Source of the DNA: an uncultured Planctomycetota bacterium
GTDB taxonomy: Bacteria; Planctomycetota; Planctomycetia; Isosphaerales; Isosphaeraceae
Reading direction: 5' to 3'
Assembly: GCA_963823665.1 (NCBI GenBank)
Contig: CAWGMQ010000010.1
Location: 1,632,001-1,696,000 of the forward strand
Length of the DNA stretch: 64,000 nucleotides
The translations under genes were made by a program, and so were the position numbers. The notes under the pieces are model-generated. The model was not told where the DNA came from. It did no database searches and was given only the letters and a program-made list of their open reading frames with translations. This document shows positions 33,663 to 56,186 of this stretch, piece after piece (position 1 is the first letter of the stretch; each line of letters begins with the position of its first letter).

Positions 33663-36600
33663 TCAGTGATGCACGAACGAACGGGCAGGCCGGTGAACCA
33701 CCGCCAGGTCCGCGGGGATCGACGGCTGCAAGCGAACGGGATGCCTCGAGCCGATCGTGGCCTCACGTTCGATCACGGCGTCGACCGCGGAGGAATCGAG
33801 GGCGAGGCGGAAGTCGGCCCGGCTCATGGTTGGGGCATTCAGGGTGACGCCGCTCTTGCGGAGAACAGCCACGACATTCGTGCCGTTGTTCAGCGGACGG
33901 CCCAGCGCATCGAGCAGACTGGCGGCATTGACCGTCAGCTCCAGCGCCGGGCTCAGCACGAGCGCCTTGCGGGGCGTCAGAGTCACCGTGAGCATTGTCG
34001 CGTTGTAACTCGCCGAGGCCAGCGCCACCGGCTTGCTCTTTTGCTTCTTCGAGCTGGCCACCGTGACGAGTCTATAGACACCGAGGTTCCGCGCGTCGCT
34101 CGCATTGAGCGCCGCGCTGAATTTCAACACGATCACCTGCGACGTCTTATGCTTGCCCGTCTTGATCTTCTGAATCGAGACGTTCTGGACCGTCGCCAGC
34201 GGAACCGTGACCGTGAGCGTGCCGTCGATGTACGAGATCTTGTAATTGCGCAGACCACTGCCCGTCGCGGCGCTGGGCACGATGGGATACGTGCCCAACT
34301 TCGCCGACGCCGGCGCCCCGGTGCTGGTTCTCGGTCACGCCGGTGATCGTGTCGCCGTTGGCCGTCACCAGGCCGGTTTCGGTGAACGCCGTGCCGAGGA
34401 AGGTCTCCAGCGTGCCGTAGATCTTGCTGCCATTGTGGGCGGTAATAGTCAAGGTTGCCGGGTTGACTGTTTGACTCAGACTGCCTGAGCTGTTCGCAAA
34501 ATTCCCAGTCGGAGTATAGAAAGCAGTGATCGATTGGCTCCCTGCCGGCAACGTCGAGGCGGTAAACGTCGAGGTTGCGCTGTTCCCACTGCCGCTGAGC
34601 GAAGATCCAGACCCGAGATCGGTTGACCCGTAATAGAACGCGACGCTGCCGCTAGGCACGCCACCGCCGGTGTCGCTGACGGTGGCCGTGAATGTCACCG
34701 ACTGGCCGTAGGTCGACGGATTGAGCGAGGAGGTCACGCCCGTGGTGGTGGACACGGGTGTCGTCGTCGGGTCGAAGAACAGCCCGTTGACGATGGCATT
34801 GGTCGGGCCCGTATTCGTGACCGTGATGAGCACGTTACCCGAGATGGTCCAGATCAGGTAGTCGCCGCCCGAGAAATTCGACAGGGTCTCCGTGTCTAGC
34901 ACCGTCCCCGTGATGGCGTCGCTGAGCTGGATTGTCTCGGTACGTCTTTCGGAGTCAAAGTCTGTGGCGTAGAGTTCCAGGTTGTGGGAATTCCCGTCGG
35001 TCACATCGACATCGACCGTGAAGCTGGAGGCGGAGTACCAGTCCGCGGCGATGTGGTTGTTGCTTGAGTTTGGCACGTTTTCCAGAGCGCGGGGATCGCT
35101 GGAGTTGGTCGAGTAGACGTAGGTTGACTGTCCGGCCGGCGTGATGGTGGCGTAGGTGGGTGCGCTGACCGGGCCGTCGATGATGTCGTAGCCCTGGGTG
35201 CCGTAGACACCGACCCAGTTGCCCTGGGTCGAGGTGTCCGTGCCGTTGAAGATTGCGCTCGATGAGCAGCAGACCGTCCCGCTCAGGTCCACGCGCAGCC
35301 CTGTGTAGGTATCGCCGTCGTTGTGGACGATGAAATCGAGCGTGTTCGTGCCGGACTTAAAACTGACGCCACTACCGCTGCCAGTACTCTGGTCGGTGAT
35401 CGTGAAGTAGTGCAGCGTGTCAAATGACGCGGCAGTCGTGGTGCTAATCGTCGCTCCGGGACTCATGACCTGCTCGCCGTTGAGCCAGATCGTGCCTTCG
35501 TTATCGGCCGCCCAATTCCCCGTGAGCACCGCCGTTTGTGGGTTACAATTACAATCCGTGGGCATAACGAACGTGGTTTCGTAATCGTAATAGCCACCGG
35601 GGCTGCCCATGTCATACCCGGACGGATCGGGCGAGATCCACTCCGAACTCGGGCCGTCGGCGACGTACGGGGGGAAGAGGCCCGAGCTGCTGTTGATTAC
35701 ATAGGTGGGTGCGGGGAGAGGCAGGGTGGCGGGTGTGTCGCCGTTTACGGGGGTAACCAGCGTGTAGTGCGGGTCACTGGGCATGGGCGAGACCGGATTC
35801 GTGGACAACAACGCTCCGGAGGTGTTCAGGCCGGTGCCGAACACCGGCAGGGGGACCGGGTCCGCGCAGCAGGCCGTCCCGCTCAGGTCCACGCGCAGCC
35901 CTGTGGGGCTTTCAATGTTTGAGTTGGGGAGGTCGTCGTTGTGGACGATGAAATCGAGATAGTTCGTACCGGTCTGAAAACTGACGCCACTACCGCCGCC
36001 AGTACTCTGGTCGGTGATTACGAAGGGCTGCAGCGTCTGAAATGATGTGCGATCAGTGGTGGTAATCGTCCCTCCGGAACTACTGCTAACCGGCTTGCCG
36101 TTGACCAAGATATAGCCTTCGTTATCGACTGCCCAATCCCCCTTGAGCACGACCGATTCTGGGCTAAGACCCGGGGCCAGGACGAACGTGGTTCGGTAAT
36201 CGTAATAGCCACTGGGCTCGTCTGCGGAATACCCGGTCGAATCGGGCGAGATCCACTCCGATGTCGTGCTGTTGCCGTCGTACAACGCTGGGGAGTTAAA
36301 GATGGTGTCGCTCTTGTTGAGCACATGGGCGGGGGGAGATGGGTACGGGGCGGCGACGTTTGGGGCGGTGAACGTAGGGATGAGGCCGGGCAAAGAACCG
36401 AAGGTGACTGGGGCGGTTGGATTGGGGGTTAGCGGTTGCAGCGTGTAGTGCGGGTCGATGGGCATGGTCGAGACCGGGTTCGTCGACAACAACGCTCCGG
36501 TGGTGCCCACTCCGGTACCGAACACCGGCAGGGGGAGCGGTGCGTTACAGTACAGTTCGTTGCTGACTGACGTGAACTGAATGTTGAAAGTCGAGGTAGT

Positions 36601-37285
36601 GACCCCGATCGCTGTGTCGATTTGAGACGTGAGGTCTAGGTAGGTCCCGGCGGGGGCGGGTTCTATCCCGGGGGCGGGGGGTTCCGTGACATCAATAGAT
36701 GGGATCGGGCTCCCATTCACCGCGCCAGGGCCAAGGGGGTTGAACGGTATAGTCCCCGGTCCGAGGGTGTCTGACAAGAATAGCCAGCCCGCGGTCACGT
36801 TGTCTAGGGATGCCGTCAACGTGATGCTCAGTGTGTCGTTGAGACCATTAGCGCTTCCCTGAACGATTGAAACACCCGGTTCATAGATATTAAAATTGAC
36901 GACATATACACCCACGGGGACGTTTGGGGTGCTTGTCGAGCCCGGGGCGTTCGAATAGGTAGTTTGCCCATCAACCTCCCCAAAATTCGGCGGGGTTCTC
37001 ATTGGTAATTGTTACAATTGAATCATTTAAAGATGAACTGATCGGAGCTGGATTGTTTGGTGGGTAAACATATGGTCCTTCTCCTGGTAGGTTATCGCCT
37101 AATGACGCCAAGATCGCACCACTCGGGTTCGAAGCATCAATTGCAACGTAAACCGCTACCGGTAACTGGGCGAGCAGGCAGCGATTCTCCAGCTCCAAGA
37201 TCTGGGGGCGGGTGGCGTTGCGTCCTCCATTGGGGCGGCGGTGGTGTTTGGAGGGTTTGAACTCACCTGCCAAGGTCAAGTTCAT
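33663..37285 (-). CDS. Large extracellular protein (two repeated beta-sandwich domains, Ig-like and MBG-like domains); two frameshifts
   Basis: LELENRCLL motif; ORFs 36971..37315, 34147..37002 and 33663..34298 abut; duplicated DPHYTL...SEWISPD...GYYDY.TTF...W..DNEG. Confidence 0.8.
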
Positions 37286-37459
37286 CTCCCTCTCTGGCTT
37301 CGTCGCGGTCAACATGGCTGAATCCTCCGGGTTGGTTCTCGATCATTGCGCGATGGTCGCTCGGGATCGGTGGAGAATCGGCGGTTGGCTCGCCGAGAAC
37401 CACCGGGTCCGGCCCACCGGCCACCCGGTGATCATGCCTGCGTTCCTCGCTTACAGAGG

Positions 37460-37507
37460 AACTCGCTGGCGCGGCGAATAACCCCGCAACCACGCGCGGA
37501 TTTTTTT
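37460..37507 (-). promoter_or_regulatory. Shared 32-bp motif, copy A (putative ECF promoter)
   Basis: AACTCGCTGGCGCGGCGAATAACCCCGCAACC-N9-T7 on the plus strand. Confidence 0.6.
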
Positions 37508-37731
37508 CCGAATTGGGTCTGCTCCGCTGGCAGGCTCGGTGCGAGAGTGGTCTCGTGTTGGCAGGGAGCAGCCTGCCGGGATGTCGATCGGGTCGGCATT
37601 CTGCCACGCACGGATCGACTCGCCAGATTAGAGTATTTGCGTGAGAAAATTATGTTTGCATTCCGGTATCCGCCACCCCATCATGAATGCGTCAAACCCT
37701 TCGTTCCTCGCGGTCGAAGGAAGCCGCGCCG

Positions 37732-37845
37732 ATGGACCTGGAAGGTTCGGTCACGCACTGGATCTCTCAGCTCAAGCAGGGCGACCGCGCCGCCGCGGAG
37801 GCCCTCTGGCGGGCCTATTTCCACCGCCGGGAGGGGAATTCATGA
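37732..37845 (+). pseudogene. In-frame internally deleted ECF sigma (37-aa mini-ORF)
   Basis: MDLEGSVTHWISQLKQGDRAAAEALWRAYFHR-REGNS* corresponds to the N- and C-termini of the 48926 sigma. Confidence 0.85.
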
Positions 37846-40800
37846 GCGGTGCGACCCCGACCGAGGAAGGGGACGGTTCGGCGTCGCTGGGCGGACGCTT
37901 GGAAGAGATATGCGACCGCTTCGAGGCCGCCTGGAAGGCAGGAGAGCGGCCGACGATCGAGGATTACCTCGGTGAATTACCTGAGGCCGATCAGACGGCG
38001 CTGTTTCGCGAACTGCTGGTGCTGGAGCTGACCTACCGCCGCCGGCTTGGCGAACGGCCGACGCAGGAGGGATATCAGTGCCGGTTTCCTGAGCAGGTCG
38101 CCGTGATCAATGCTGTCTTCGGAGCGGAGCCCCCTCTTCGGGCCGCCCGGCCCCGGGCCGGCGCGGACCACAACCTGCTGTTCGGCCTGCTCGCCCTGCA
38201 GAATAACTTCATCGATCGCGACACGCTCGTGGCCGCCTTCGCCGCTTGGGTCACCGACAAGCCCCGGGACCTGGGGCGGATCCTGCTCGAGCGCGGCGCC
38301 GTCGACGCCGACACCCACGCCCTGCTCGAGGCCCTGGCCCGCAAGCATCTGCAGGTGCACCGCGGCGATCTTGAAGAGAGTCTGGCTGCGCTTAGCTCGC
38401 TCGGATCGGTCCGCGCGGATCTGGAAGGGGTCGCCGACCCCGAGCTGCAAACTTGTCTCACCCGCGTCCCCACGACCAACAACCGGGCGGGCCAGGACAC
38501 CTCGGCCCCGCGGGCCGAGACGGCCGGTACCGCGGGTACACGGTTCCGCATCCTGCGGCTGCACAGGACCGGCGGCCTGGGCGCCGTCTACGTCGCCCGC
38601 GACGAAGAGCTGCACCGCGAGGTGGCCCTGAAGGAAATCCGCGAACGACTCGCCCACGACCCGGACAGCCGGTCCCGGTTCGTGCAGGAAGCCGAGATCA
38701 CCGGCCGGCTGGAGCATCCCGGGATCATCCCGGTCTACGGCCTGGGTACCTACGCCGACGGCCGGCCGTTCTACGCCATGCGGTTCATCAAGGGGGACAA
38801 CCTCAAGGACGCCATCGCGCGGTTCCACGAGGCGGACGTCCCGGGCGCGACCCGGGCGGGCGGGCCCTGGCGCTGCGCGAGCTGCTCGGCCGGTTCGTCG
38901 ACGTCTGCAACGCGATGGCCTACGCACACAGCCGAGGCATCCTGCACCGCGACCTCAAGCCGAACAACATCCTGTTGGGCCCGTACGGCGAGACCCTGGT
39001 GGTCGATTGGGGGCTGGCCAAGCCGGTTGGTCGGCCCAAAGAGGGGTCGCGCACCGAGGAGGTGACGCTCCGGCCCGATTCGGCTGGTTCGAGCAAGACA
39101 ACGCTCCCGGGCGACACGCCTGGCACCCCGGCTTACATGAGCCCGGAGCAGGCCGCCGGCGACATCGACCGGCTCGGGCTGTCGTCCGACGTGTACAGCC
39201 TGGGGGCGACCCTCTACTGCCTGCTGACCGGCCGGGCGCCGGTCGAGGACGGGGACATCGAAGCGGTCCTGGATAAGGTCCGACGCGGTGAGTTCCCGCC
39301 GCCGAGGGCGGTGAACCGGGCGATCGACCCGGCAATGGAGGCGATCTGCCTGAAAGCGATGGCGTTGGTCCCCGAAGGCCGCTACAGGTCCCCCATCGCC
39401 CTGGCCGACGACATCGAGCATTGGCTGGCCGGTGAGCCCGTGTCGGCTTACCCCGAGAATCGGACCGAGCGAGTGACGCGCTGGATGGGCCGGCATCGCA
39501 GCGCGGTCCGGGCGGCGCTGGTGACCTCGCTGATCGTGTCCGTCGTTGCGATTTCGTTCGCCTTTTTCCTGGAACAGGCGCGACGCCAGGAGCACAAAGC
39601 CCGGAAGAATGAGCAGCTCGCCCTGGTCCAGGTCCAGAAGGCACGCACCACGGAAGCACTCGCGTTAACCGATGCCCAGCGCCAGCGCGATCTCGCGGAA
39701 GAGAGCTACCGGGTGGCCCGCGAGGCCATGGACGAGCTCGACGAAATCGCTAATACCCCCACTTCGGGCGAAGAAGATTCCCGGAAGCGACTCGCAATGA
39801 TCAAGGCCGTATTGACTGAACGCACCGCGCTCCTTCCTGATCCCATCGCCAATCTGAATCTCGACTTCGAGGCTAAAGATCCACCGCCCAAGAAGCTGTC
39901 CGCGAAGCCGAACGGGTGGGATATCGACGGTGACGGCTACGACATACACCTAGACCCGACGGCCGCGCGGTCGGGCCGGCAATCCCTTCGCATCCGGTTC
40001 AAGCAGGGATCGATGGGTCGGATCGGCCAGGCCTCGCGGGAGATTTCCGTGGCCACGGCGGCGGGGAAGCAGGTCCGCGTCAGCGGGTATATCAAGACCG
40101 AGGGGATCTCCACCGGGTATGCGGGGCTCTGGTGCCGCGTTGATAGCAGAGAGGGTACGATCGCCCTGCACACAATGGGCGAACGGTACGATCACGTCGA
40201 CCCCAAAACCGGCGTCCCTATCTGGAACGACAACTTGAAGGGTCGCGGTGTCCGCGGCACGACCCCGTGGGCCCGATTCCAGATCGAGCTCCGGTTAGCC
40301 TCAGGCGCGACACGACTCGTCTTCGGCGGCCTGCTGACCGGCGACGGCACCGCGTGGTTCGACGATCTGGCGATCGAGGTCGACGGCAGGCCGCTGGCGT
40401 CGGCAGTCGCCGCGCTCCCCATGCCCCGACCTTCCGCCGACCTGAACCTCGGATTCGAGGTCGATGAACCGAAATTGGAGACGCCGAAGGGATGGAGAGT
40501 GAGCGGGAGGGGCAGCAGCCCGTCAGTGGGAGGGGGAAAGGGCTACGAGTCCGAACTGGATGCGACGACCGCGAGATCGGGCCGGCAGAGTTTGCGAGTA
40601 CGTTCCACCGGGGAACGAGGAGAAGGCCAATTCGGCGTCTTCGGTCAGCGCATCCCGGCCTCCGTGGCTGCCGGAAAGCGTGTTCGCGTTAGTGGCCACA
40701 TCAAGACCGATGGAATCACGGAAGGGTACGCGGGCCTGTTCTGCAGGATCGACGGGCAATACGATACGACGCTCGCGGGCGACAACATGGCGGTCCGTTG

Positions 40801-41527
40801 GGAGTACGGTGGAGTCCAAAAAAGAGACGATCGCGGAGTCCGCGGCACAACGGCGTGGAAACATTACCAGATTGCGCTTGACGTCCCCGCCAGAGCGACG
40901 ATCATCACCTTCGGCGGCCTGCTGACCGGCGACGGCACCGCGTGGTTCGACGATCTGGCGATCGAGGTCGACGGCAGGCCGCTGGCGCGGTCACTCGCGT
41001 ACGAGCCCACAAGAGAGCAGGTCGTCTCGGGCTTGACCAAGGAATATCATCCTTGGAATTTCTCCGTGGACCAGCCAGCTCACTGGACGACGTTGAATAC
41101 CCGCGACGTGTCCGTCGAGGGGAAGGCACTTTTCGCCTGGCGTACGCAACCACAGAATGAAGTGGTCATTTTCATTCTGAAAGAAACCCAAGCGCACAAC
41201 CCACGCATCCTGCTCAACCAATTCGCTCTGGCTGTAAGACAAGCGTATAAAGCTGAGGTCAAAGCCGCCGAGGTCAAGGCGGTCGCCGGCATGCGGGCGA
41301 TGTGGTTGGTATTCACAAGCAAGGGGACCGGACGGATGGTTGACGGAGTCGGAGACATCCCGACGACCCAGCACCGGGTCGAAATCCCGCGCGAGAAGGA
41401 CAGATTGGTACTGATGCTTACGTCGCCAACGGATCGCTATCCGGCCGCCTTGAAGGAATTCGAGGCGATGCTCAAAACACTCAAAGTCGAGGGCACGCAG
41501 ACCAAGGAGCAGGCCGAGGCCCAATAA
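37842..41527 (+). CDS. Ser/Thr kinase with TM and two CBM-like/galactose-binding-fold domains; frameshift near 38845
   Basis: GGLGAVY, VALKE, HRDLKPNN, DWGLAK and GTPAYMSPEQ; repeat RVSG.IKT..AGL.CR.D..GVRGTT.W..WFDDL. Confidence 0.85.
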
Positions 41528-41568
41528 TCCGCTTGGCCGGGAATTCCCCCGGTCTCCTTGACCAATTC

Positions 41569-42578
41569 CTAGGCAATGTCGCGGATGGCCGGGTCGTCGC
41601 TCTGGACGCACGCGGTGCTCCGCCTCCAGGGCGCCGCTTCCTGGGGTGCTTCGGGCCGGGCCGTTCGAGGAAGTGGGGCGTCCTTGCGCCGACCGACCAG
41701 GACCAGCGCCTCCAACCGGACCAGCGCCCCCTCCGGCGTCGGCGCCACGGTGACCTCTCAGAGCCAGTTGCGTTCATCGGGACGCCGCACCCGGCGGTAG
41801 CTCTTCAGGGCCCCGGGTGGTTCGACCTTGAGGTCGAAGGTCAGGGGGACCTGGTCGCAATAGGTGCCGGGGATGGGGAAGTTCAGGACTCCGACGTCAT
41901 CGCGGTTGCGGGTGGCGACGACAGCCTGGGCGCTGGCGTGGATGACGCCCAGCCCGTCGAGCGGGGGGGCGGGCCGCGCGGGGGCCGGCCGCAGCAAACG
42001 CGCGAGGAGACCGCCTGGCGGCTTGGGAAGCCCCGGACCAGCCTTCTTCGGGCCGCCGACTCGGAGATGGGCGTCGGAGACCGAGATGGGCTGGGCGGTC
42101 GCGTTGATGACCCAGGCCGTCAACGTCGCCGTGCCCGGGGGGACAACATAGTCCCGGGTCAATTTGGTCCATTTCCCGGCGACCAGGTCGAACGGAGTGC
42201 TCGACTGAAAGGTGAGATCGCGATCCTTGTCGTAGCCGATCACATTGACAGACGCCTTCTGCCCGTCGGTGTGCCCGCGGACCTGGCAGTCGAAGCGGAG
42301 TTCGCTGTCCGCGGGCACCGGGCTGATGGCGACACCCACGTGCGACCACGACTGCGGCCCCGGCTCGACACCGTCGAGCCGCACAGAGGCGCTGTCGCCA
42401 TGACGAAGCTCCGGCTCGGGGACGGCACCTCGGAGGTACCACCCCTCGGCCCGGTGCTCGAAGGTGGGGTTCTTGAAGAGCTCGGAACCCTGGGGATCTC
42501 ACGAGCCCCCAAAGTCCGGCACAGCCCCAGAAGCGTCAAGACGACCAGGGCCGATGCGAGGTAAAGCAAGCATCTCAC
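41569..42578 (-). pseudogene. Secreted CBM-like/transglutaminase-like protein; disrupted and truncated
   Basis: Signal peptide, frameshift near 42490, TGA at 41758, ends after VQSDDPAIR. Confidence 0.55.
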
Positions 42579-42783
42579 AGGGATCTCCTTTCTCGAACTA
42601 ACGGTGGCGGGCATACCCGAGGTCAGACTTGGTTTTTGGGCTATGCTAGAGCGAAAAACCAAGACCAAGTCTGACCCCACGAGCTTTACGAGGACTTTGC
42701 GCCTCGGCCGCCGTCGGCTTCCACGGCCAGCCCGACACCAAGGCGGTGCGGTTCCCGCGCGACAGTGGTGCGACCAAGCCTTA

Positions 42784-43968
42784 CTAAGTGATAACGACCG
42801 GGCACACAAAGGGGCCATTCTCGATGTAGAAGCCTGTTTTACCGTAGGCGATGCCTGCCGTGCCGCCGCCGCCGCCCAGATTGTTGCCGCCGGGGCTGAA
42901 GTAGAGCTCATCTCCACTGAAAAGCGTGAGCATGCCACCCTCGTAAGCGACCAACTCCACCACCTTCTGGGACCCACTGTAGGCGTTGACGGTTCTGCCG
43001 CCGCCGCCGACGTTGAGGCCGGTGGGGCTGAAGTAGACGCTGCCGGTGCTGAACTCCGTGTCCACGCCGTCCCAGACGGCGAACAACTGCACCGCTCGCC
43101 CAGTCCCAGTGTAGGCGTTGACCGTACTGCCGCCGCCGCCGACGTTGAGGCCGGTGGGGCTGAAGTAGACCGAGCCGGAGGCGAACAGCGTTTCCACGCC
43201 CACCGTGCCCTCTAAGCCCCCGATCATGTTGTTGACGGCAACGATCTGCACCGCTCGCCCAGGCCCATTGTAGGCGTTGACCGTACCGGGGCCGCCACCT
43301 ACATTATTGCCGGTGGTGCTGAAGTAGACACTACCCGAGGCGAACAGCGTGTCCACGCCGCCGTTGACGGCAACCAACTGCATCGGTTCATCAGACCCAA
43401 TGTAGGCCTTGACCGTGCCGCCGCCGCCGCCCAGATAGTTGCCGGTGGGGCTGTGGTAGACGTAGTTGAAGACTCCGGAGTCGAACAGCGTGTCCACACC
43501 GCCGCTCCCGTTCTCGCCAACCGGGACTATCTCCACCACGCGTTCCTTGCCGGTGTAGGCCTGGACGGTACTGCCGGAGTACGTATTGCTGCCCGGCACG
43601 ATGCCGCCGTTCCAGCTGCCGGGGGGGCTGTACCAGACGGTTCCGTCCTGAAAGAGCGTATCCAGACCGCCGTCAGCCGGCACAATCTCCACCACCCGGC
43701 CATGCTGCTGGTTCGACGGGGTGTGGATAGAGAGGAAGTTGTAGTAGACATCCCCGTCGTTGCTGAGCTCGTACGCGCCAACGCTGACCTTCGCCGTCTG
43801 CACCACCTGAAACGGTCCGTTGAAATTGGGAACTGGTATCGCAGACAGCAGCATGCGGCCCTCCATGGTTTCGACCTGAGGTCGCTGCTGCCGCCTGGTA
43901 TGTTGCCGGGTCCGCTGGCTGCGAGGCGAAAGCCGACCGAAAAGGTCATGAAGTCGTAAGAAACGCAT
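42784..43968 (-). CDS. Secreted protein with about 6 Gly-rich ~48-aa repeats (probable beta-propeller)
   Basis: ETMEGRMLLS motif; repeat GVDTLF.SGSVYFSPTG.N.GGGG.TV.AY.G..R.V..VAV. Confidence 0.8.
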   Translation of the reverse strand: MRFLRLHDLFGRLSPRSQRTRQHTRRQQRPQVETMEGRMLLSAIPVPNFNGPFQVVQTAKVSVGAYELSNDGDVYYNFLSIHTPSNQQHGRVVEIVPADGGLDTLFQDGTVWYSPPGSWNGGIVPGSNTYSGSTVQAYTGKERVVEIVPVGENGSGGVDTLFDSGVFNYVYHSPTGNYLGGGGGTVKAYIGSDEPMQLVAVNGGVDTLFASGSVYFSTTGNNVGGGPGTVNAYNGPGRAVQIVAVNNMIGGLEGTVGVETLFASGSVYFSPTGLNVGGGGSTVNAYTGTGRAVQLFAVWDGVDTEFSTGSVYFSPTGLNVGGGGRTVNAYSGSQKVVELVAYEGGMLTLFSGDELYFSPGGNNLGGGGGTAGIAYGKTGFYIENGPFVCPVVIT

Positions 43969-44447
43969 GGTCGTACTTCTTTCTTTGGTTGAGGTCTGCG
44001 GATGTGAATCGTCTCATGCCGGCCAGGACACAACTTGTGGCCTGGCCACTCAGGACCGCGGGGAGTCACCGCCCGACGGACGGGCGCACCCCGAACGGGG
44101 GCGCCCGATCACGACACGCCTTCCGGTTCCGCCGACCCGGCGGAAGCCCCTTCGACCCAACGCGAGCGAAACCTCCACATCAGGGCCGGGAGCCCGACCC
44201 CGTCCGGGTCAAGCGCCAGCGGCCGGCCATTTGATGTCAGGTGCGGGGTTGCGCGGAGCTTGAACGCCGCCGCCGAGCCCCAGGAACCGGGCGAACCGCC
44301 GCTGGCGCTGGCGGGCGTACCAAGATTGCCGAGCCCGATCCATCGTCCGCCTCGCCCGTGTCGCGTCCATGGTAGGTGCCCTCTCCGAGCGGGACGCCGG
44401 ACCACCGGCCACCCGGCGATCGTTCCTGCATCCCACGCTCACAAAGG

Positions 44448-44495
44448 AACTCGCTGGCGCGGCGAATAACCCCGCAACCCGCTCCCGATTTTTTT
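44448..44495 (-). promoter_or_regulatory. Shared 32-bp motif, copy B
   Basis: Identical 32-mer plus T-tract. Confidence 0.6.
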
Positions 44496-45390: not shown

Positions 45391-45434
45391 AGGGATCTCC
45401 TTTCTCGAACTGGCGGTGGCGGACATACCCGAGG

Positions 45435-45695
45435 TCAGACTTGGTTATTCCAGAGCGAAAAACCAAGAACCAAGTCTGACCCCACGAGCTTCCCAGAACC
45501 AAGTCTGACCGCACGAGCTTCCCCTTCAATGCCCACGCCCACACCGCCAATGCCATCGTTAGCCCCACCACCGACGACACTCTCCTCCTCGTCGGGGGTC
45601 AGCTCCCTGAAGTCCTCGGACTCCGGGAGGTCCTGGATCCTGTCCTCATCGGCCTTCGCCTTTTTCGGGTCGTTCGTCGGGTTGCTGGTCGCCAT
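45435..45695 (-). CDS. Double-glycine-leader peptide (bacteriocin/RiPP-precursor-like); 3' end invaded by repeat
   Basis: GAAGGAAAG RBS; ELTPDEEESVVGG leader motif; Gly-rich core. Confidence 0.6.
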   Translation of the reverse strand: MATSNPTNDPKKAKADEDRIQDLPESEDFRELTPDEEESVVGGGANDGIGGVGVGIEGEARAVRLGSGKLVGSDLVLGFSLWNNQV

Positions 45696-45899: not shown

Positions 45900-45948
45900 A
45901 ACTCGCTGGCGCGGCGGATAAACTAGCAACCCGCGCCCGATTCTTTTT
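45900..45948 (-). promoter_or_regulatory. Shared 32-bp motif, copy C (4 mismatches)
   Basis: AACTCGCTGGCGCGGCGGATAAACTAGCAACC plus T-rich tract. Confidence 0.55.
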
Positions 45949-46366: not shown

Positions 46367-46458
46367 ATTCCCAGATGTCGAGCTTGGACGCCACCAAACC
46401 TTGCCGCCACTCTTGGCGAACGGTTACGTCTGCGCCCGGTACGCCAGGGGTCCGCCGC

Positions 46459-48570
46459 TCATGAGGCGTCTCCCGAGAAAGTTCTTGGATCGACCTGGCC
46501 GATTCTCTGGAGGGGACGAGGTCGCAGAACAGGGAAGTCATAGACGTCCACGCTGGCCGCGACACTCTGAGTCGGAAGAACCAAGTCCGCGATTGCCGCG
46601 TCCCGCAGAGCCGTGGCGGCCCACCCTAAGGTATCGGCACTGTCGTTGCTGCTCGTTGTCCCGTTGCGCGGGGCCAGCGATCCCACGCTTGGCGAGAGCT
46701 CGGACCCGGTCTGTGGCAGGCTTTCCGCCTCGGAAATCGTGGCCGACGGGCTGGCGTCGACGGGGCCGACGGGCTGGGGACAATTGCCGTCCAGGTAGAA
46801 GTTCGCCGTGAGCTGGTTCCAGTTGAGGTTCAGAATTCCCGGGTCGGCGCCATAATCGCCTTTGTTGTTCACGCCCCAAGGATTCAGCAGCTCGAACGAC
46901 TGGTCCGACGGATTGTAACTTATGACCGCATAACAGTGATCGCCTACGATCGGCGAGCTATCGCCCGGGTAGCTGTCGAGGGTGAGCAGTGTTTGAGAGT
47001 TGATCGCGCTGATGAAACTGCCCTCGCTTGCCAACAGGTTCGAGTGGCTTTCCTGAAGGCCGGTGATGACCGGCAGGGTCCACGATGCCTCGCCGCTCAG
47101 AGACGCATAGGCGTTGGAAGAGGGCTGACCGTTCCACCCGGATTCGCAGAGCTGGGCATACGCCTTCTCCGCCAGGGGGACCCAGAGGACGTTACTCGGG
47201 TCGCTTATGGATTGAAGTTGACCTTGGTTGAGACTATCATGTGCGAATTCAAAATAGTCACCGGTGTAACTGGTTCCTTCATAGCTCGGGTTAATTTCGT
47301 ACGGAAAATAATTGTTGACCGTGAGATAGGATGCCACGCCGTTGTCATAGAAGCAGACCGTCCAGACCTGAGCCCCGTCCACGGTTCCGTCGTACGTGAA
47401 CATGTTTTTGATGGCGACGGCGTCATGCGCGGCCGTTTCCGCGTAAGAGGCCAGCAGCCAGCAGTCGCCGTCATTTCCTTGATAAACGTCGTTGTAGCTG
47501 GGGCCGCCGCTGCTGCACAGGTTGCCGCTGGCGAGCGCGTAGCTGGGGGTCGGGGTCTGGGCAACCCCGTTGTAGTAGGTTGTCGGATCCGGATAGTCTT
47601 CGCCCAGGAACCACTTATTGACCAGGTCCTGCAAATGCGTGGCCGAACTGCCCACTTGCAGGTTGCCCAGCGGAACGCTTTTCTCCGCGTTGCTCGAGTT
47701 AAGGTATTGGTAGTCGGTGTTGCCCGGGTCCCCGAATACCACTTTGCTTGCGAGGTCGGTGAGGCCCGTGCCCGTCATGAAGCAATCCTCTCCAATATTG
47801 CTCGCAAGTGTCTGCAAGCACTCCATTTGCAGGGGCAGAAGGCCGCCCGAGGGCACCTCGCCCTCCACGGTTTGGAGCAGCCCCAGCATGTCGTTGAAGT
47901 TAAGTGATCGATCGCGGTCGAGATCCGTCAGCGCATCGGCGAGCACCGTTGGTTCGTTCGGGTCGGACGTGGATGCGGGGCCATTGATCTGCACGTTGGT
48001 GACGAACGCGTTGTTGTCCCCCGAGAGCGGGTTCAAGCCTCTGAACACGAGGGTATGCAAGCCCGTTCCCGCTACACTGAAGTTCATGCTTTGGTACGAG
48101 GTGTAGCCAGTGGTGGCGGGCACCACCACGTCCACCAAGGCGTTGTCCAACCAAACCCCTACGGCTTGAAAACTGGATTGAAGATTCTGCCGCTGGGCGG
48201 CCTCGAACGAGATGCTGTAGTTGCCCGGCTGGAGGTTGAACGACTGCGACATGTTGCCGTTGTTTGGCAGAAAGGCCACCTGGCTCGGGGCGGAGACATT
48301 AGGGTTGCCGATGGTGAACTTGCTGCCGTTGCCGCTCACGCCTGCGCCTCCGTAGAATGCCCAGGGCGAGCCGGGCCCGTTGGCCCCGTAATCATAGGGA
48401 GGGGGGGCCGTTTGGAACGGCGTGGCAAAAGTACCGTCGCTGAACGCCACACTCATCATCGTCCGCGTTTCCAACCGCTCGACGCGCAAGGACGCGCCGC
48501 GTCTGTTCCGACCGGAGGTCCGAATCGACTGTGACTCGCCGGCACAAACTCGTTGAAGCATGCGTTTCAT
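46459..48570 (-). CDS. Secreted C2-family (calpain-like) cysteine protease with N-terminal CBM-like domain
   Basis: VERLETRTMM motif; QGNDGDCWLLAS (Cys), GDHCYAV (His), LLNPWG (Asn) and LWVPLAEKAYAQ. Confidence 0.88.
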   Translation of the reverse strand: MKRMLQRVCAGESQSIRTSGRNRRGASLRVERLETRTMMSVAFSDGTFATPFQTAPPPYDYGANGPGSPWAFYGGAGVSGNGSKFTIGNPNVSAPSQVAFLPNNGNMSQSFNLQPGNYSISFEAAQRQNLQSSFQAVGVWLDNALVDVVVPATTGYTSYQSMNFSVAGTGLHTLVFRGLNPLSGDNNAFVTNVQINGPASTSDPNEPTVLADALTDLDRDRSLNFNDMLGLLQTVEGEVPSGGLLPLQMECLQTLASNIGEDCFMTGTGLTDLASKVVFGDPGNTDYQYLNSSNAEKSVPLGNLQVGSSATHLQDLVNKWFLGEDYPDPTTYYNGVAQTPTPSYALASGNLCSSGGPSYNDVYQGNDGDCWLLASYAETAAHDAVAIKNMFTYDGTVDGAQVWTVCFYDNGVASYLTVNNYFPYEINPSYEGTSYTGDYFEFAHDSLNQGQLQSISDPSNVLWVPLAEKAYAQLCESGWNGQPSSNAYASLSGEASWTLPVITGLQESHSNLLASEGSFISAINSQTLLTLDSYPGDSSPIVGDHCYAVISYNPSDQSFELLNPWGVNNKGDYGADPGILNLNWNQLTANFYLDGNCPQPVGPVDASPSATISEAESLPQTGSELSPSVGSLAPRNGTTSSNDSADTLGWAATALRDAAIADLVLPTQSVAASVDVYDFPVLRPRPLQRIGQVDPRTFSGDAS

Positions 48571-48644
48571 GGAAGGTTCCTTGCTGCCAGGCAGCTTTCG
48601 CGGTTTCAGTTGCGGGGCAAGACATGTTGTCCTCTCTACAGAAC

Positions 48645-48692
48645 AACTCGCTGGCGCGGCGAATAACCCCGCAACCCTGGCCGAATTTTTTT
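48645..48692 (-). promoter_or_regulatory. Shared 32-bp motif, copy D
   Basis: Identical 32-mer plus T-tract, 75 nt from the protease ATG. Confidence 0.6.
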
Positions 48693-48925
48693 CAGGTTTG
48701 GGTCTGCCCCCCCGACAGGCTCGGTGCGGAGGGGGTCGCGTGTCGGGGCGGGCCGGCGAGGCAGGGCCGAACGGTATGTCGGTCGGGGCCGTATTTGCGC
48801 CGCATCGATCGACTCGCCAGATTAATGTATCTGGTTGAAAAGAATATGTTTGCAATCCGGGGGCCGAGTCCCGATCATGAGGGCGTCGGCCCCGTCGTTC
48901 CTCGCGGTCGGAGGAAGCCGCACCC

Positions 48926-49516
48926 ATGGACCCCGAAGGTTCGGTTACGCGCTGGATCTCTCAGCTCAAGCACGGCGATCGCGCCGCCGCCGCGCCCCTC
49001 TGGGAGGCCTACTTCCACCGCCTCGTCGCCCTGGCGCGCACGCGACTCAGCGGCACCCCGCGCCGCGCCGCCGACGAGGAGGACGTGGCCCTCGCCGCCT
49101 TCGACAGCTTCTACCGTCGCGCCGAACGCGGCCAGTTCCCCAGGCTCGAGGGCCGCGACGACCTCTGGCAGCTCCTGTTCGTCCTCACCGTGCGCAAGGC
49201 GGTCGACCTGACGCGCCGCGAGGCCCGCCAGCCCGGGCGCGGCGCCTGGGGGCGGTCGCTCTGGGAGCAGGCCGAGCTGAAGCTCGAGCTGCTGCTCGGC
49301 TCGGAGCCCACGCCCGAGTTCGCCGCCCTGGTGGCCGACGAGTGCCGGCGACTGCTCGCCCGCCTCGGGGATGAGACGTTGCAGTCGGTGGCCGTCTGGA
49401 AGATGGAAGGCGAGACCAACGCCGCGATCGCCGCGCGGCTGGGCTGCGTCGCCAAGACCGTCGAGCGCAAACTCCGGCGCATCCGCGAGCTCTGGGGCAG
49501 AGAGGGAGTTTCATGA
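48926..49516 (+). CDS. ECF sigma factor (STK-associated, Sigma70_ECF-like)
   Basis: SVTRWISQL, DEEDVAL.AFDSF and TVERKLRRIR; ATGA-coupled to the kinase. Confidence 0.9.
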   Translation: MDPEGSVTRWISQLKHGDRAAAAPLWEAYFHRLVALARTRLSGTPRRAADEEDVALAAFDSFYRRAERGQFPRLEGRDDLWQLLFVLTVRKAVDLTRREARQPGRGAWGRSLWEQAELKLELLLGSEPTPEFAALVADECRRLLARLGDETLQSVAVWKMEGETNAAIAARLGCVAKTVERKLRRIRELWGREGVS

Positions 49517-52500
49517 GCGACGTGACCCCGACCGAGGAATGGGATCGTTCACCCTCGCTGGGCGGACGGGTGGAGGCGATGTGCGACCGCTTCGAGGCCG
49601 CCTGGAAGGCGGGCCGGCGGCCGCCGATCGAGGATTACCTCCGTGAAGTGCCCGAGGGCGGACAGACGGCGTTGTTCCGTGAGCTGCTGGAGCTGGAGCT
49701 GGCATACCGCCGTCGCGCCGGCGAGCGGCCGACGCCGGAGGAGTATCAGTGCCGGTTCCCGCAGCAGGTTGCCGAGATCGAGACCATTCTTGGCGGGGCG
49801 CCCCCTCCTCGGGCCGGCGCGGACCACCACCTGCTGTTCGGCATGCTCACCCAGTCTTCCGCTCCTTTTCAGGAGTACCCGGTGAAGATCGATCGCTATC
49901 GACTGATCCGGTCGCTCGGCCAGGGGGGATTCGGGCGTGTCTACCTCGCCCGCGACGACGATCTTGACCGCCCTGTGGCGGTCAAAGTCCCACGCCCCGA
50001 GCGAGTTTCTTGCCCGGAAGATATCGAGGCGTACCTGACCGAAGCCCGAATCGTTGCGAGCCTCGATCATCCCCATATTGTTCCGGTCCACGACGTAGGG
50101 CGCACCGACGACGGGCTGTGCTTTGTCGTGTCCAAGTTCATCGAGGGGAGCGACCTTGCAACCAGGATCAAGGAAGCACGCCTCAGCTTTCACGAGTCAG
50201 CGGGATTGGTGGAAACGGTCGCCGAAGCCCTTCATCACGCACATACTCGTGGCTTGGTCCACCGCGACATCAAGCCCGCCAACATCTTGATTGATGCCTC
50301 AGGGAAGGCGCACGTTGCCGACTTCGGTCTTGCACTTACTGACGAGGACTCAGGGAGACCTGGTGGGCTGGCTGGAACCCCTTCGTACATGAGTCCCGAG
50401 CAGGCACGGGGCGAAGGTCACCGGGTCGATGGGCGATCCGACATGTTCAGCCTTGGCGTGGTGTTCTACGAACTACTGACCGGGCGACGACCGTTCGTCA
50501 CCAAAGCCCAAGACAACGACGAAGCTCGCAACGAACTGCTGGACCTCATCGCTGCCACCGAAGCCCGCCCTCCGCGCCAGATCGACGACACGATCCCCAA
50601 GGAATTAGAACGCATCTGTTTGAAGGCGATGAGCAAGCGAGCGTCCGACCGGTACACCACCGGATGTGACATGGCTGAGGATCTGCGAGCCTTTCTCCAC
50701 ACCGTCAGAGGAGTGGCAATTCCCGCCACCATGTCCGCTCCGGTCAGCCCGCCTCCCGGTTCAACCGACGTGGTGACACCGGTCCCATCTACCTCCAGGC
50801 AATCCGACTCCGACCAACGACCGTTGAAGATTGTCCCCAAGGGATTGCGGTCCTTCGATCAACACGACGCCGATTTCTTCCTCGAACTGCTGCCGGGACC
50901 ACGAGATCGAGATGGTCTGCCCGACAGCATCCGATTCTGGAAGGATCGCATTGAAGAGACCGACCCTGATCAGACCTTTCGGGTGGGACTCATCTATGGA
51001 CCTTCGGGTTGCGGCAAGTCGTCGCTTGTGAAGGCGGGATTGTTGCCGCGGCTGGGCAAGCACGTTCAAACGGTTTACGTCGAGGCGACCGCGGAGGAAA
51101 CGGAAACCAGGCTCCTGAAGGGGTTGAGGAGGGTTTGCTCTGAGTTGCCAACAGGGCTGGGCTTGGTGGGTTCTCTGGCAACGGTGCGGAAGGGTCGGGT
51201 TCTGCGGGCCGACCGGAAACTCCTGCTTGTGCTGGACCAGTTCGAGCAGTGGCTTCATGCGAAGCGCGGTGAGGAGAACACGGAGCTGGTCGCCGCTCTT
51301 CGACAGTGCGACGGTGAGCATGTTCAGGCGGTTGTGATGGTGCGGGATGATTTCTGGATGGCCGCAACCCGGTTTATGAGGGATCTGGAGATCCGCCTTG
51401 TCGAAGGGGAGAACTCGGTAGCCGTTGATCTCTTCGACCTTGACCACGCCGGAGGAATCCTGTTGGCATTTGGTCGGGCGTTCGGCAGGCTGCCTGAGGA
51501 TGCGTCCGATACCTTGAAATATCAGAAGGACTTTCTCAAGGAATCCGTCAATGGACTGGCAGAAGACGGCAAGGTTGTTTCCGTCCGCTTGGCGTTGTTT
51601 GCCGAGATGATGAAGGGGAAGTTGTGGACCCCCGCCACGCTCAAAGAGGTGGGCGGCACGAAGGGTGTGGGTGTCACATTCCTCGAAGAGACCTTCAGCG
51701 CCTCGACCGCCCCTCCCGAGCATCGCTTTCACCAGAAAGCAGCGCAGGCGGTTCTCAAAGCTCTTCTGCCGGAAAGCGGCACCGACATCAAGGGGCAAAT
51801 GAGATCTCGTCAGGACCTGCTTGAAGCTTCGCGGTATGCGAACCGACCAAGCGACTTCAATGACCTGATTCACACTCTCGACCCGGAGCTGCGCCTGATC
51901 ACACCCACCGACCCGGAAGGCTCCGACGATGATCAAACCGTGACGAAGCCCGGAGAGCGTTATTATCAACTCACCCACGATTACCTCGTCCACTCGTTGC
52001 GGGACTGGCTGACACGCAAACAAAGGCAAACCCACCGTGGGCGTGCGGAACTGCGGCTGGCGGAACGCTCCTCGCTATGGAACGCCAAACCAGAGAACCG
52101 CTATCTGCCGTCCGCGCTGGAGTGGGCGAACATCAGGTCGCTGACCGAGAAGCGGGAGTGGACCGATGCCCAACGCAAGATGATGAAACGGGCGGGACGG
52201 CTGCATGGGGTGCGGGCGATCGCGTTCTCGGCCGTTGCCGCAGTGCTGGCAGCCACGGGAATAAACGCTTGGAAGCGTGAAGTTGAGGCCAACAGAGCAA
52301 AGGCCAGTGCCGCGACGAGCCGCATCCAACAACTTCTCAAGGTCCAAACCGCCGATGTCCCCGGAGTCGCTCTGGCTATGGAGGAAGATCGCCTCCGGAC
52401 CGACCCTGAGCTGAGACGCATCGTCGCGAATCCATGGCTTCGGCCGAAGGCCAAGCTTCACGCCAGCCTCGCGCTCTTGCCGGTTGATCCCAGCCAGTTG

Positions 52501-55500
52501 GAGTATCTGGAGTCGCGACTTTTCGACGCCGCGCCCGACGAGCTACTCGTCCTGAGGGATTCCCTTCGACCCTATCAGTCCAGGCTGCCCCCGAAACTGT
52601 GGCCCATACTCGCAGAAGCCAAGGCCGGCGATCCCAGGTTACTTCCGACCGCCGGCGCCCTCGCCCTGTACGACCCTGACAATCCTCGATGGGACAACCT
52701 GGGTCGCGAGGTGGCTCAGGCACTCGTGACGGTGAATTCCGTCGACCTCGGCCCTTGGCTCCATGTCCTTCGTCCCGTGCGCGGCAAGCTGACAGCACCA
52801 ATCGCGGCCATCTTCCGGAATAAAAAGAGTTCCGAGTCCGTACAGTCGCTGGCGACCGACATCCTCGTCGACTACGCCAGCGATGAACCCGAGCAGCTTG
52901 CCGAGCTGCTGATGGTTTCCGATCCCAAGGCGTTTGCGAAGCTCTTCACGGTGGCCGAGCGCCAGGCAGCGCGAACGATGCCCGTGTTCCTGGCCGAGAT
53001 CGCCAAGAAGGCGACCTTCAACTGGAACGACCGGCCGCTCGAACCCCCCTGGACGAAACCCGATCCGACGTTGGTGCGTCAAATCGAAACGGCGCAGGGC
53101 GTGCTTGCCGAGCGATTTGCGCTCTGCCAGACGATGCCGCTCGAGGATTTCCGCAGGATCGTCGAGAGTCTGCGAACCTTGGGCTATCGCCCCACTCGGT
53201 TTCGACCGTTTGCCGATCGGCAGGCCGTGAAGGTCGCGGCGGTCTGGACGCGCGACGCTCGGAAGTGGCGGGTCGCGTCAGGCCTGACCGCCGAGCAGGT
53301 TCGCCAGCAGGACGAGACGAACCGGAATGCGAAGTTCCTCCCCACGGACATCGCCGGCTACTTGACAACCGATGCCGGAAAACTTGCAAACCAATACGCT
53401 GTGCTCTGGGTCGAGCAAGCCGGCGGCGACGACGCCCGGCTCTTTGCCGGGGCGGCCGACGACGAGTTGGCCGACCTCCAGAAGCCCTTGGAAGACGCCA
53501 AGCTCATCCCCCGCACGCTGCACGCCCTGCGCGGGCCCGACGGTCGCCTACGATACTGCGGCGTCTGGGGCAAGCCCCCTTCCGCCGCCGTCAGCGCCCA
53601 GGAGTACCGCGACCTTTTCGAGGGGAACCTCACCGTGGATCTGGTGAATATGAGCGACCAGTTGGTCCTCGATGTAGCGGTCAGCGAGGCGGGCAAGCCG
53701 CAAACAACGCGCGAGCTTGCCCAGGCCGCCCGGCAGCGTGCGGACAAGAAACTCGAGACCACGCCCGACGATCCCGACACCTGCCAAGCCCGGGCTGTGG
53801 CGAGCTTCCGTCTGGGAGAGAATCAAAAGGCACTCGATGACCTTCAGGTCGTGATCGGCAAAAACCCGGAAGCCGCCACCGCCAAAGAGTACAGGGTCAT
53901 CGTCCTCGCCCGGCTCGGGAAGAAGCAAGACGCCCTGACCGAACTGGCAAAGTTCCGGAATGGAGTCGACCCGGAGCGTAGCAAGCTCAGCCTGGCCGCC
54001 GTCGCGGCCGCCGAGATCGGCGAAGGGGCCGACAAGGCACTGGAGGTCCTGGACGCGGCGCTCAAGAAGCAGCCAAAGGATTCGGAGCTCAGGTATGACG
54101 CTGCCCGTGCCTTCGCTCTGGCCTCGCAAGCCGTTGCCAAGCAAAACCAGGCCAGGGGTCGCCAACTGGCGGAGCGATCCCTTCTATTGCTCCAGGAAGC
54201 GCTGAAGGACGGTGGTGCCGATTTCGGCAAGATGGACGTCGACCCGGCCCTCGACCCAGTCCGTGATGACCCGGCGTTCGCCGAGGTCATGAAGGCCGGC
54301 CACCCCGATCGCCGCTATTCGGCCGTCTGGTCTGGTGATGCACGGTTCGACTCAACGCAAAGCCACGGTCTCGACCCCGCCGCCCACTTGCGGCGCTGCC
54401 ACGAGCTGATCGCCCAAGGATACCGGCCGGTCTCCAGTGTCCACCGCACGGACCTTCCCCGATGGCCCGATGGTGACGGCCTCGGTCTGGCATCGCCCCT
54501 CCGTGAGCGAGCAGGTCAAGGACGATCTGGCCGAGCGGCAGGCACGGGCTGCGGCGGCCCTGGTCCGGCTGGGCCAAGCCGATCAAGTCTGGCCCTTGCT
54601 GGTGCACAGCCCCGATCCGCGGCTGCGCAGCTTCATCGTCAACTGGCTGAAACCTCTGGGAGCCGAAGCCGGCGTCATCGCCGCCGAATTCGACCGCGTG
54701 GATAAAGCTGGGCGCGGGTCGGACAAAGTTGGGCGCGGGTCTCCAGACCCCGCCGAGGAGCCAGACCGAAGGTCTTCTGCCCCTGGACGAACCGCCGAAT
54801 CGGGGAGACCTTCGGTCCCGGGGAGGGCGGGGTCTGGAGACCCGCGCCCAACGCCCGGCACCGGGTCCGGAGACCCACGCCCGACAGTCGACCGTGCCAC
54901 AGACTTGATGGAAACGATTCTCTTCGACCCCAACAGCTCGATCCGACGCGCGCTCATCCTGACGCTCGGGACCTACGACAATGACGGGCTCTCCCTCGGC
55001 GAGCGTGATGCCATGATCGCCAAGCTGCTCGACCTCTACCAAGTCGACCCCGACGCCGGCATCCACGGTGCGGCGGAGTGGACGCTGCGGCAATGGAAGC
55101 AAGAAGAAAAGCTGAAGGCTGTCCAGGCCGAGCTGACCAAGCTCAAGGACAAAGGCAACGGCCCCCGCCGTTGGATCGTCAACAGCCAGGGCCAGACATT
55201 CGCCGTGATCGACGGCCCCGTCGAGTTCCGCATGGGCTCCCCGCCCGATGAGCCCGATCGGAATCCCGACGAGACGCCCCGTGCCCAGGTCATCTCCCGT
55301 CGGTTCGCGATCGGCTTCAAGGAGGTGACCGTCGAGCAGTACGAACGGTTCGTTCAGAGCGGAAACCAGGAATTCGGTCGCCCGAGGAGCGACCTGGACA
55401 AGTTCAGCCCCGATCCTAGCGGTCCCATGATTGGGGTGACTTGGTTTGGCGCGGCGGCCTACTGCAACTGGCTCAACAAGCAGGAAGGCCTGCCCGAGGA

Positions 55501-55978
55501 CCAGTGGTGCTACCTGCCCAACGACCAGCAAAAGTATGACGCGGGGATGAAGATCCCCGCCGACGCCCTCAAGCGGACAGGCTACCGCCTGCCCGCCGAG
55601 GCCGAATGGGAATACGCCTGCCGCGCGGGCACGGTCACGAGCCGGTATCATGGTCTCTCGCTCCGACTACTCGAGGCTTATGCCCAGTATGCGGGCAACA
55701 GCAAGGTGCATGCATGGCCCGGCGGGACTCTGCTGCCCAATGACCTGGGCCTGTTCGACATGCTTGGGAACGTGACTGAATGGTGCCAGGAACGTTACGC
55801 GAACCATCAGCCTGGAGTAGTCGAATCAGTAAGTGATGATATACGCAACAAACGTCTGCTTCGGGGCGGGTGTTTCATCTATCTTCCGGCGGTCGTCCGC
55901 TCGGCGCACCGGGCCGGGGTCGCCCCGTCGAGCCCCGGCGCGGGCTACGGTTTCCGTCCCGCCAGGACTTACCACTGA
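49513..55978 (+). CDS. STK - nSTAND-type P-loop NTPase - repeat/TPR - FGE-sulfatase (C-type lectin fold) protein; frameshift near 54435
   Basis: GQGGFGRVY, HRDIKPAN, DFGLA; GPSGCGKSS and VLDQFEQ; GYRP...AVW repeats; FRMGS, YRLPAEAEWEYACRAG, GLFDMLGNVTEW, RGG and GFRPAR. Confidence 0.9.
54728..54852. repeat. REPIN-like long hairpin inserted in frame within the CDS
   Basis: Perfect 27-bp inverted repeat (54728-54754 / 54826-54852) plus an inner 12-bp inverted repeat. Confidence 0.85.
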
Positions 55979-56186
55979 TCCTCTTTACGACTTTACCACT
56001 ACCGCCGAGTGGTATATCCTGAACTGACACGAATGACACGGTAATAGCCGCCGAGCCACGTCCAGTAAGGCGTCACGTGCTTCGTGAGGTGGATCGGCCA
56101 GTAGGCGCTTCCGGGCCTAGCAGTCGTTGCGTGTGTCGGGGGAAACCGCAGGCTGGTCTTGCAGGACGAGAAGGGAGCACCGCCGG

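Follow-up and report, generated by a model that had tools for sequence, protein, structure and literature searches.

Does a short repeated element serve as the promoter of a sigma factor, placing genes for exported products under the control of a kinase-borne sensor? The question is raised by a stretch of 64,000 nucleotides (the window) from an uncultured planctomycete of the Isosphaeraceae (assembly GCA_963823665.1, contig CAWGMQ010000010.1, positions 1,632,001 to 1,696,000). It contains two cassettes, in which the gene of an extracytoplasmic function (ECF) sigma factor overlaps that of a Ser/Thr kinase and a 32-bp motif points the opposite way. The reading that we consider rather likely is that a modular planctomycete cassette has been duplicated at this locus and has decayed in part; the motif would be the -35/-10 promoter of the intact sigma factor, the membrane kinase would switch this factor on and the divergent genes would be co-induced. 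A regulon around the intact sigma factor is probably real. As a member of its family the locus is unremarkable and in part decayed; what it adds is a predicted rule linking sigma residue 180 to the promoter, a docking-type domain of the kinases and a small Arg-rich protein.

The cassettes, their motif and sigma residue 180

Self-comparison of the DNA pairs 37444-37828 with 48630-49022 (79% identity) and 37831-38196 with 49502-49852 (78%), which bears out the two homologous divergent cassettes proposed in an original prediction made from the letters of the window. As that prediction also held, a single sigma gene is intact. Sigma 2 (48926..49516, plus strand) has 196 amino acids and matches PF07638 with 123 bits (cut-off 21.1) and Sigma70_r4_2 weakly, with no match to Sigma70_r2 or, in NCBIfam, to a TIGR02999-type family; as a short protein made of sigma2 and sigma4, it is of the ECF type (group 4 of sigma70). 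It carries an acidic DEED motif in sigma2.2, Ala57, Thr129 in the linker and Glu180 in the sigma4.2 helix, and its stop codon overlaps the start of kinase 2 in the ATGA at 49513-49516. Sigma 1 (37732..37845, plus strand) is a remnant of 37 codons, in which an in-frame loss of about 159 codons fuses the sigma start to its last residues, the ATGA overlap with kinase 1 being kept; the deletion is probably genuine, since it is too large for an assembly error. A Ser/Thr kinase gene with catalytic motifs at +1 and no anti-sigma gene is the arrangement of kinase-associated ECF factors. One apparent sigma-kinase fusion among 150 representatives was discarded as a partial sequence, probably joined by a frameshift.

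The motif is present in four copies, all on the minus strand and facing minus-strand genes. Copies 1 (37460..37491) and 4 (48645..48676) belong to the cassettes, with predicted -35 boxes at 37488-37480 and 48673-48665 and predicted -10 boxes at 37468-37462 and 48653-48647, an A-tract lying upstream in copy 1; copies 2 (44448..44479) and 3 (45900..45931) stand alone. Copies 1, 2 and 4 are identical; copy 3 has four changes, a degenerate, damaged -35 (TGCTAGTTT) and a decayed small open reading frame (ORF) behind it. Within the 16.46-Mb genome the 22-bp core, with up to 3 mismatches, gave 4 matches versus 0 for the control, and looser patterns brought in two more sites, of which one lies within an ORF and the other is unrelated. 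A genome-wide occurrence irrespective of gene orientation, one of the findings set beforehand as speaking against a regulon, was not seen at this threshold. The predicted presence of the same motif before four secreted products holds as to the four copies, but the one at 45900 deviates and copy 2 first meets a conserved ORF of 53 amino acids, 80 nt downstream, the gene of a repeat protein following at 482 nt. All copies are parts of longer duplicated segments and hence are not independent sites.

The synteny check that had been suggested for relatives gave a positive answer. Among 121 genomes of the family, the motif with 0-1 mismatches was found in G021 (3), G065 (2), G048 (1) and G008 (1); in the first three, which represent three other genera, cassette and motif recur, the latter in the same place opposite the sigma gene. 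G065 has two tandem cassettes, and G021 and G048 also have stand-alone motif copies. The relatives are 85-90% alike in DNA from the motif through the end of the kinase N-terminal domain; beyond this point the kinase body, the sensor (WD40-, TPR- or FGE-type) and the cargo are swapped. Ahead of the sigma gene, a Sigma70-like promoter candidate of the TTGCA-17-ATCAT type precedes the sigma 1 remnant and kinase 1 (37656..37684, plus strand) and another the sigma 2-kinase 2 operon (48850..48878, plus strand); the pattern is also found in G021 and in both G065 cassettes, with no match in G048. The sigma-kinase operon is thus probably driven by the housekeeping machinery, the motif serving the divergent side.

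The motif was compared over 80 homologous sigma loci and 17 from this genome. Expectation maximisation on 90 upstream regions, seeded with the window copies while the window and its two closest kin were removed, yielded, on the divergent strand, an A/T tract followed by TG(T/G)CGG.T and G.GA(T/G), with a log-likelihood of 302 versus 142-184 in eight controls (six shuffles, the same strand and the reversed sequence). The 88 loci used for cross-validation include kin and are not independent, although two near-duplicates were dropped; the held-out score was higher on the divergent strand in 62 of them, and a control trained on the other strand showed no asymmetry. Covariation gave the strongest test: at the 48 of these 88 loci with a confident site, the -35 core is G-rich in 28 of the 32 with Glu180 and C-rich in all 9 with Lys180. 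Position 180, in the TVERK stretch of the -35-reading helix, is the best of 196 columns, Lys requiring three changes on a quick tree; the Glu180 of sigma 2 matches its G-rich sites. When the -35 core was masked, a C-rich site was picked in all nine Lys loci and in 2 of 38 Glu loci, and with every Lys locus removed from the training set as well, that C-rich site came out on top in 9/9 versus a background of 23%.

Since a related motif lies on the divergent strand at homologous loci and residue 180 tracks its -35 core, the window motif is, as far as sequence comparison can tell, most likely the sigma factor's own -35/-10 promoter. The regulon idea is therefore well supported computationally, by an ECF promoter anatomy, by confinement to the locus and by covariation with the -35-reading helix. 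Kinase-associated ECF sigma factors abound in planctomycetes, and a residue-to-base rule of this kind would make their regulons predictable. No usable promoter is available for their groups from the reference classification; the probable reason is that its search was made upstream of the sigma gene, the target here facing the other way. No description of this promoter, of the kinase N-terminal domain or of the small protein was found in the part of the literature that was covered. At some Lys180 loci (L120, L131, L144) a second C-rich promoter-like site faces the sigma gene, back to back with the first; these probably autoregulate, unlike the window cassette.

The kinases and their helical N-terminal domain

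The two kinases differ in their sensors as had been claimed. Kinase 1 (37842..41527, plus strand, about 1228 codons) consists of a helical N-terminal domain, a Hanks kinase (VALK, HRD, DWG), one transmembrane helix, two CBM_4_9-like domains (atlas match 0.96) and an unassigned C-terminal domain. Kinase 2 (49513..55978, plus strand, about 2155 codons) has a helical N-terminal domain, a kinase (VAVK, HRD, DFG), nSTAND1, one weak transmembrane helix, BTRD1, TPR and a C-terminal FGE/C-lectin domain. Its two ORFs are one gene: of 8000 proteins scored, 3071 longer ones match the C-terminal part, many of them of 2000-2200 amino acids and with an identical set of domains, and by tblastn there is just one change of frame, near 54430; the protein is a member of a common planctomycete kinase-nSTAND1-FGE family. 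REP-like inverted repeats run in frame within it (54728-54900), as a low-complexity linker before the HEAT/FGE part, with related copies at 31888-32021. Just past the gene, 56077-56496 (plus strand) encodes a fragment of a WD40 C-terminus of the type found on planctomycete kinases, possibly a relic of an earlier sensor.

The N-terminal regions of the two kinases, which had been called near-identical, share only 71% (82/115 amino acids), their catalytic lobes sharing 38-39%; moreover, the domain is found 35 times in the genome. In kinase 2 it spans 49555..49806 (plus strand) and is predicted to fold into five helices (pLDDT 93), with no Pfam match above cut-off, no PDB sequence and no Foldseek match. 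Its atlas matches are unnamed planctomycete clusters, and it counts 21,692 clusters at 50% identity. A kinase motif is present in 55 of the 63 long top matches; the gene carrying the domain follows the sigma gene in 70 of 91 evaluable loci, and among the relatives of kinase 2 that bear a kinase it is present in only 5 of 58. The domain travels with the sigma factor and not with the kinase, which suggests that it is probably a sigma-docking module; as such it is a specific candidate for what guides dozens of paralogous kinases to their proper sigma factor.

Kinase control of ECF factors is established for ECF43 (PMC8999054, PMC13147305). According to the accessible parts of these reports and of the classification (PMC7826278), the pairs EcfP/PknT of Vibrio parahaemolyticus and EcfK/PknS of Xanthomonas citri share with the present one a Sigma70_ECF domain, a Ser/Thr kinase at +1 with one transmembrane helix, a variable outer sensor and the lack of an anti-sigma gene. 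In PknS, too, a helical bundle is predicted N-terminal to the kinase, and EcfK has linker phosphosites, chiefly Thr106, which recalls the residue at 129 here (PMC13147305, in part). On the other hand, EcfP lacks the acidic DAED motif, replaced by Ser/Thr, and gains the charge via phosphorylation (PMC8999054, in part), whereas D50-E-E-D53 is kept here, with D50 and D53 in 57/57 aligned homologues; furthermore, ECF43 is described as restricted to Proteobacteria, while the closest named relatives here are from Planctomycetota.

Closer in lineage are ECF59, ECF61, ECF62, ECF217 and the former ECF60, which in the same sections are planctomycete ECF factors with a kinase at +1 and TPR or WD40 sensors, a planctomycete extracellular protein lying near ECF217s1 as well (PMC7826278). 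ECF60 was left ungrouped, possibly for its divergent sigma2, which fits the missing Sigma70_r2 match of sigma 2; compared by description only, in sources seen in extract (PMC7826278, PMC8103513), it is our closest guess at the nearest group. The excerpts on ECF61 and ECF62 report no conserved promoter and that on ECF59 only 'TC in -35'; the ECF42 promoter, TGTCGAT / CGTC, starts like the TGTCGG-type family -35 but differs in the -10, and ECF42 relies for its regulation on a C-terminal TPR extension, which sigma 2 does not have (PMC7826278).

As to activation, a phosphorylatable serine in sigma2.2 is described for ECF59 and the original ECF60 in the part of PMC8103513 available. In the present family, Ser57 replaces the canonical Glu in 55/57, Ser61 is found in 56/57 and Thr, Ser or Asp at linker position 129 in 51/57; the window sigma, both G065 copies and that of G048 have Ala57, the window sigma retaining Ser61. 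Residues 57, 61, 88 and 129 showed no clear difference between sigma factors with and without an adjacent N-domain gene. Because DxxD is kept and position 57 is Ala, activation through linker Thr129 or through release from the N-terminal domain is favoured, by analogy, over the EcfP mechanism.

The sequence of events would then be as follows. Sigma factor and kinase would be made from the housekeeping-type promoter; a signal at the extracytoplasmic sensor would activate kinase 2, whose N-terminal helical domain would dock the sigma factor, and the latter would be freed by phosphorylation outside the DxxD motif (Thr129 being the best candidate, then Ser61 or Thr88) or by release from the docking domain. 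The freed sigma factor would bind TGCGGGGTT-11-CAGCGA, and induce a protease from copy 4, an immunoglobulin (Ig)-type protein from copy 1, the 53-residue protein and probably the repeat protein from copy 2 and, weakly, a peptide with a Gly-Gly leader from copy 3. The output would be an exported surface or interaction kit, differing between genomes, with a sensor that is not diversified by a diversity-generating retroelement (DGR).

Whether kinase 1, orphaned by the deletion, also feeds into sigma 2 is a separate matter, to which we give somewhat less than an even chance. Kinase 1 keeps its upstream promoter and the docking-type domain after the loss of its sigma factor, and orphan kinases of this kind are common, with 16 of 20 further N-domain genes (out of the 35) lacking a family sigma within about 1.5 kb upstream, where other ECF families could escape notice; integration of two kinases by one sigma factor is therefore plausible. 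Two observations concern the same wiring elsewhere in this genome (G000). On its contig C11 (about 834900-847800; L018, L302, L303) three kinases with very similar N-terminal domains flank one family sigma, a natural many-to-one candidate, and no fewer than nine orphan genes whose domain is of a closely related subtype are spread across G000 with no adjacent family sigma (L307-L310, L313-L315, L319, L321).

A broader proposal, which we put forward tentatively, is that planctomycetes have a combinatorial layer of signalling, in which the domain is a portable sigma-docking or anti-sigma module carried on kinase-sensor bodies that can be exchanged. Several kinases, among them orphans and here kinases 1 and 2, would thereby converge on one sigma factor, controlled by docking and release or by linker phosphorylation and not by the EcfP mechanism; the targets would be readable by a one-residue -35 code, and the 53-residue protein would be a feedback or anti-termination factor.

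Rival readings of the motif copies

Several observations weigh against a sigma-driven regulon, in whole or in part. Unseeded motif discovery (gapped k-mers; expectation maximisation) on the homologous loci gave nothing above shuffles, and the family motif appeared only from a seed of the window's own copies. In the covariation, the same-strand control was also C-rich in 6 of the 9 Lys loci, at least three of them owing to the second, sigma-facing site, and 7 of the 9 Lys sigma factors form one clade, a single origin of Lys being contradicted by no strongly supported branch. Mantel tests over the whole region, confounded by kinship, showed no significant association of sigma4 with the -35 (r 0.11, p 0.14) and linked the spacer to sigma2 as well (r 0.18, p 0.008). 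About 15 close paralogous sigma factors of the genome, mostly with Glu180, would be able to read these sites, and both kinases are frameshifted in the assembly. Finally, the phosphosite is uncertain, since the acidic DEED is already present and the clade is without Ser57, and the shared N-terminal domain does not single out kinases 1 and 2, many-to-one wiring being plausible in general.

Among other explanations, the one that fares best, though we regard it as doubtful, is that recent segmental duplications carried the motif copies along as passengers, with only copy 4, and perhaps copy 1, still live, kinase 1 and the stand-alone copies being relics and no integrated regulon existing. Indeed, every copy sits within longer repeats, and signs of decay are many: sigma 1 is deleted, two transglutaminase-like genes are cut short, small ORFs behind copies 1 and 3 have degenerated, the -35 of copy 3 is damaged and there are four frameshifts, in kinase 1 (about 38845), kinase 2 (about 54430) and the Ig-type gene (about 37000 and 34328). 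Against mere passengers speaks the pattern of conservation: in the clade copies (n=12) the -35 (0.86), the -10 (0.94) and the 11-nt spacer (0.91) stand out against immediate flanks at 0.55-0.57; moreover, stand-alone copies recur in G021 and G048 ahead of secreted or lanthipeptide cargo. The four frameshifts, for their part, are probably assembly errors, since the relatives' assemblies have single-base shifts in the same genes at other places, two short-read contigs are without the extra base at 34328 and the base missing at 38845 is present in a relative. These reads came from two soil runs containing 12% and 6% of the words, which yielded short contigs only, none spanning the sigma 1 deletion or 54430.

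It is unlikely, in our estimate, that the motif is instead the operator of another DNA-binding protein, or is read in trans by a paralogous sigma factor. This idea draws on the 11-nt spacer, which is as conserved as both boxes, something that a plain -35/-10 reading does not need, and on the short inverted repeat TCGC-7-GCGA that the motif contains within the clade, as well as on the many paralogous sigma factors with Glu180. However, the inverted repeat is missing from the more distant versions L084 and L150, the -35 core tracks residue 180 of the adjacent sigma factor itself, and paralogous sigma factors own divergent sites with other -10 boxes.

With regard to the sensor, the FGE domain of kinase 2 (PF03781, 138.6 bits) is of the C-lectin type, a class of DGR-target domain, and the available part of PMC10907252 describes nSTAND1 and FGE proteins of other bacteria as DGR targets, sometimes in trans, including nSTAND1-CLec conflict systems that resemble kinase 2 in nSTAND1, TPR and the C-terminal FGE-type C-lectin. 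Kinase 2 differs from these in having no template repeat, no linked reverse transcriptase and an N-terminal domain that matches no Pfam effector-associated domain. In the genome, 91.9% complete, the 3' end of the FGE region finds no template repeat, its best match elsewhere covering 277 nt at 70%, with mismatches that fall on all four bases. There are 22 reverse-transcriptase matches in the genome, none on this contig; the six with visible motifs presumably resemble group II intron or retron enzymes. Seven equal-scoring copies of a 634-residue reverse-transcriptase frame (L159-L170, G000), several lying about 2 kb from a second type (C3, C6, C11), are probably nested or paired group II introns. 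The potentially hypervariable sensor of the original prediction is thus not borne out, kinase 2 belonging to a common family, and the proposed immune-like response finds no direct support, given that a PADLOC search for anti-phage systems matched the generic kinase domain only and the cargo is unrelated across genomes. That a single sigma factor combines the input of two sensors, one being diversified by a DGR, and so sets off an immune-like response is accordingly very improbable, even though such domains are DGR targets elsewhere, kinase 1 keeps its promoter and N-terminal domain and C11 offers three similar kinases around one sigma factor.

Divergent cargo genes and flanking repeats

All divergent genes lie on the minus strand. 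The protease expected behind copy 4 is a calpain-like cysteine protease of 703 amino acids (46459..48570; Peptidase_C2) with Cys370, His545 and Asn563 assigned by motif. Copy 1 faces the large Ig-type gene (33663..37285, about 1208 codons), now in three pieces (37285-36971, 37002-34330 and 34330-33663), with an internal duplication and Big_3_5 and MBG_2-like domains. The repeat protein (42784..43968, 394 amino acids) is made of repeats of about 44 residues and has no family match. All three begin with a basic stretch followed by (L/M)ExRx(L/M)(L/M), which we take to be a planctomycete export motif, so that their secretion is a prediction.

The first gene past copy 2 encodes the Arg-rich protein of 53 amino acids (44209..44370), with a ribosome-binding site, a conserved core of 32 residues and a variable tail. 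It has 128 homologues (related loci L185-L294) with a near-invariant core and a free tail, and 83 distinct coding sequences display clear synonymous variation (third positions 0.57 versus 0.84 and 0.90). No match was found in PDB, PHROGs, Pfam or NCBIfam. Since the gene follows the motif in G021, G065 and G048 too, it is probably the ancestral first target of the cassette. The family occurs in 57 of the 121 genomes, in as many as 7 copies and for the most part outside sigma-kinase cassettes, and a strong upstream motif site was seen in 8/80. That the protein is specific to this regulon was considered and ruled out, a family sigma being found at 2 of 110 loci (with short flanks), plus L080 and L081. 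The protein may resemble anti-termination peptides of the lambda N kind, which are arginine-rich and bind RNA, a likeness that no search supported.

The peptide of 86 amino acids (45435..45695) has a 43-residue leader ending in Gly-Gly, kept in six homologues (P0392-P0397) whose cores are unrelated; no peptidase-transporter was noticed among the ORFs of this region. The tail of the peptide enters short repeats, also found at about 42620-42690. Two transglutaminase-like genes are truncated: the first, CBM-like in part (41542..42614), keeps residues 1-358 of 591 and lacks the catalytic core, being whole in G065, and the second, shorter remnant (44920..45426) keeps residues 1-128.

Cargo elsewhere is of other kinds. 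In G048 it is a mersacidin/lichenicidin-type lanthipeptide cluster: on C42 (about 44200-51000; L078) cassette and motif stand ahead of a type 2 cluster with a TIGR03898 precursor and, by eye, LanM-like, C39 transporter-like and HlyD-like genes, with a second motif copy and the small ORF behind it. On C34 of G021 (about 736800; L044) a stand-alone motif variant, far from any family sigma, precedes a small Cys-rich ORF, a candidate target in trans.

Around the locus, a 23-kb block is bracketed by an MBOAT acyltransferase gene and a copy of it that is 92% identical and carries a frameshift (32721-33384 and 56583-57247). Perfect hairpins lie at 33384-33427 and 46319-46366, and a dispersed repeat of about 110-150 bp is present in four copies, 81-88% alike, at 25003-25149, 27237-27349, 32106-32237 and 57241-57389.

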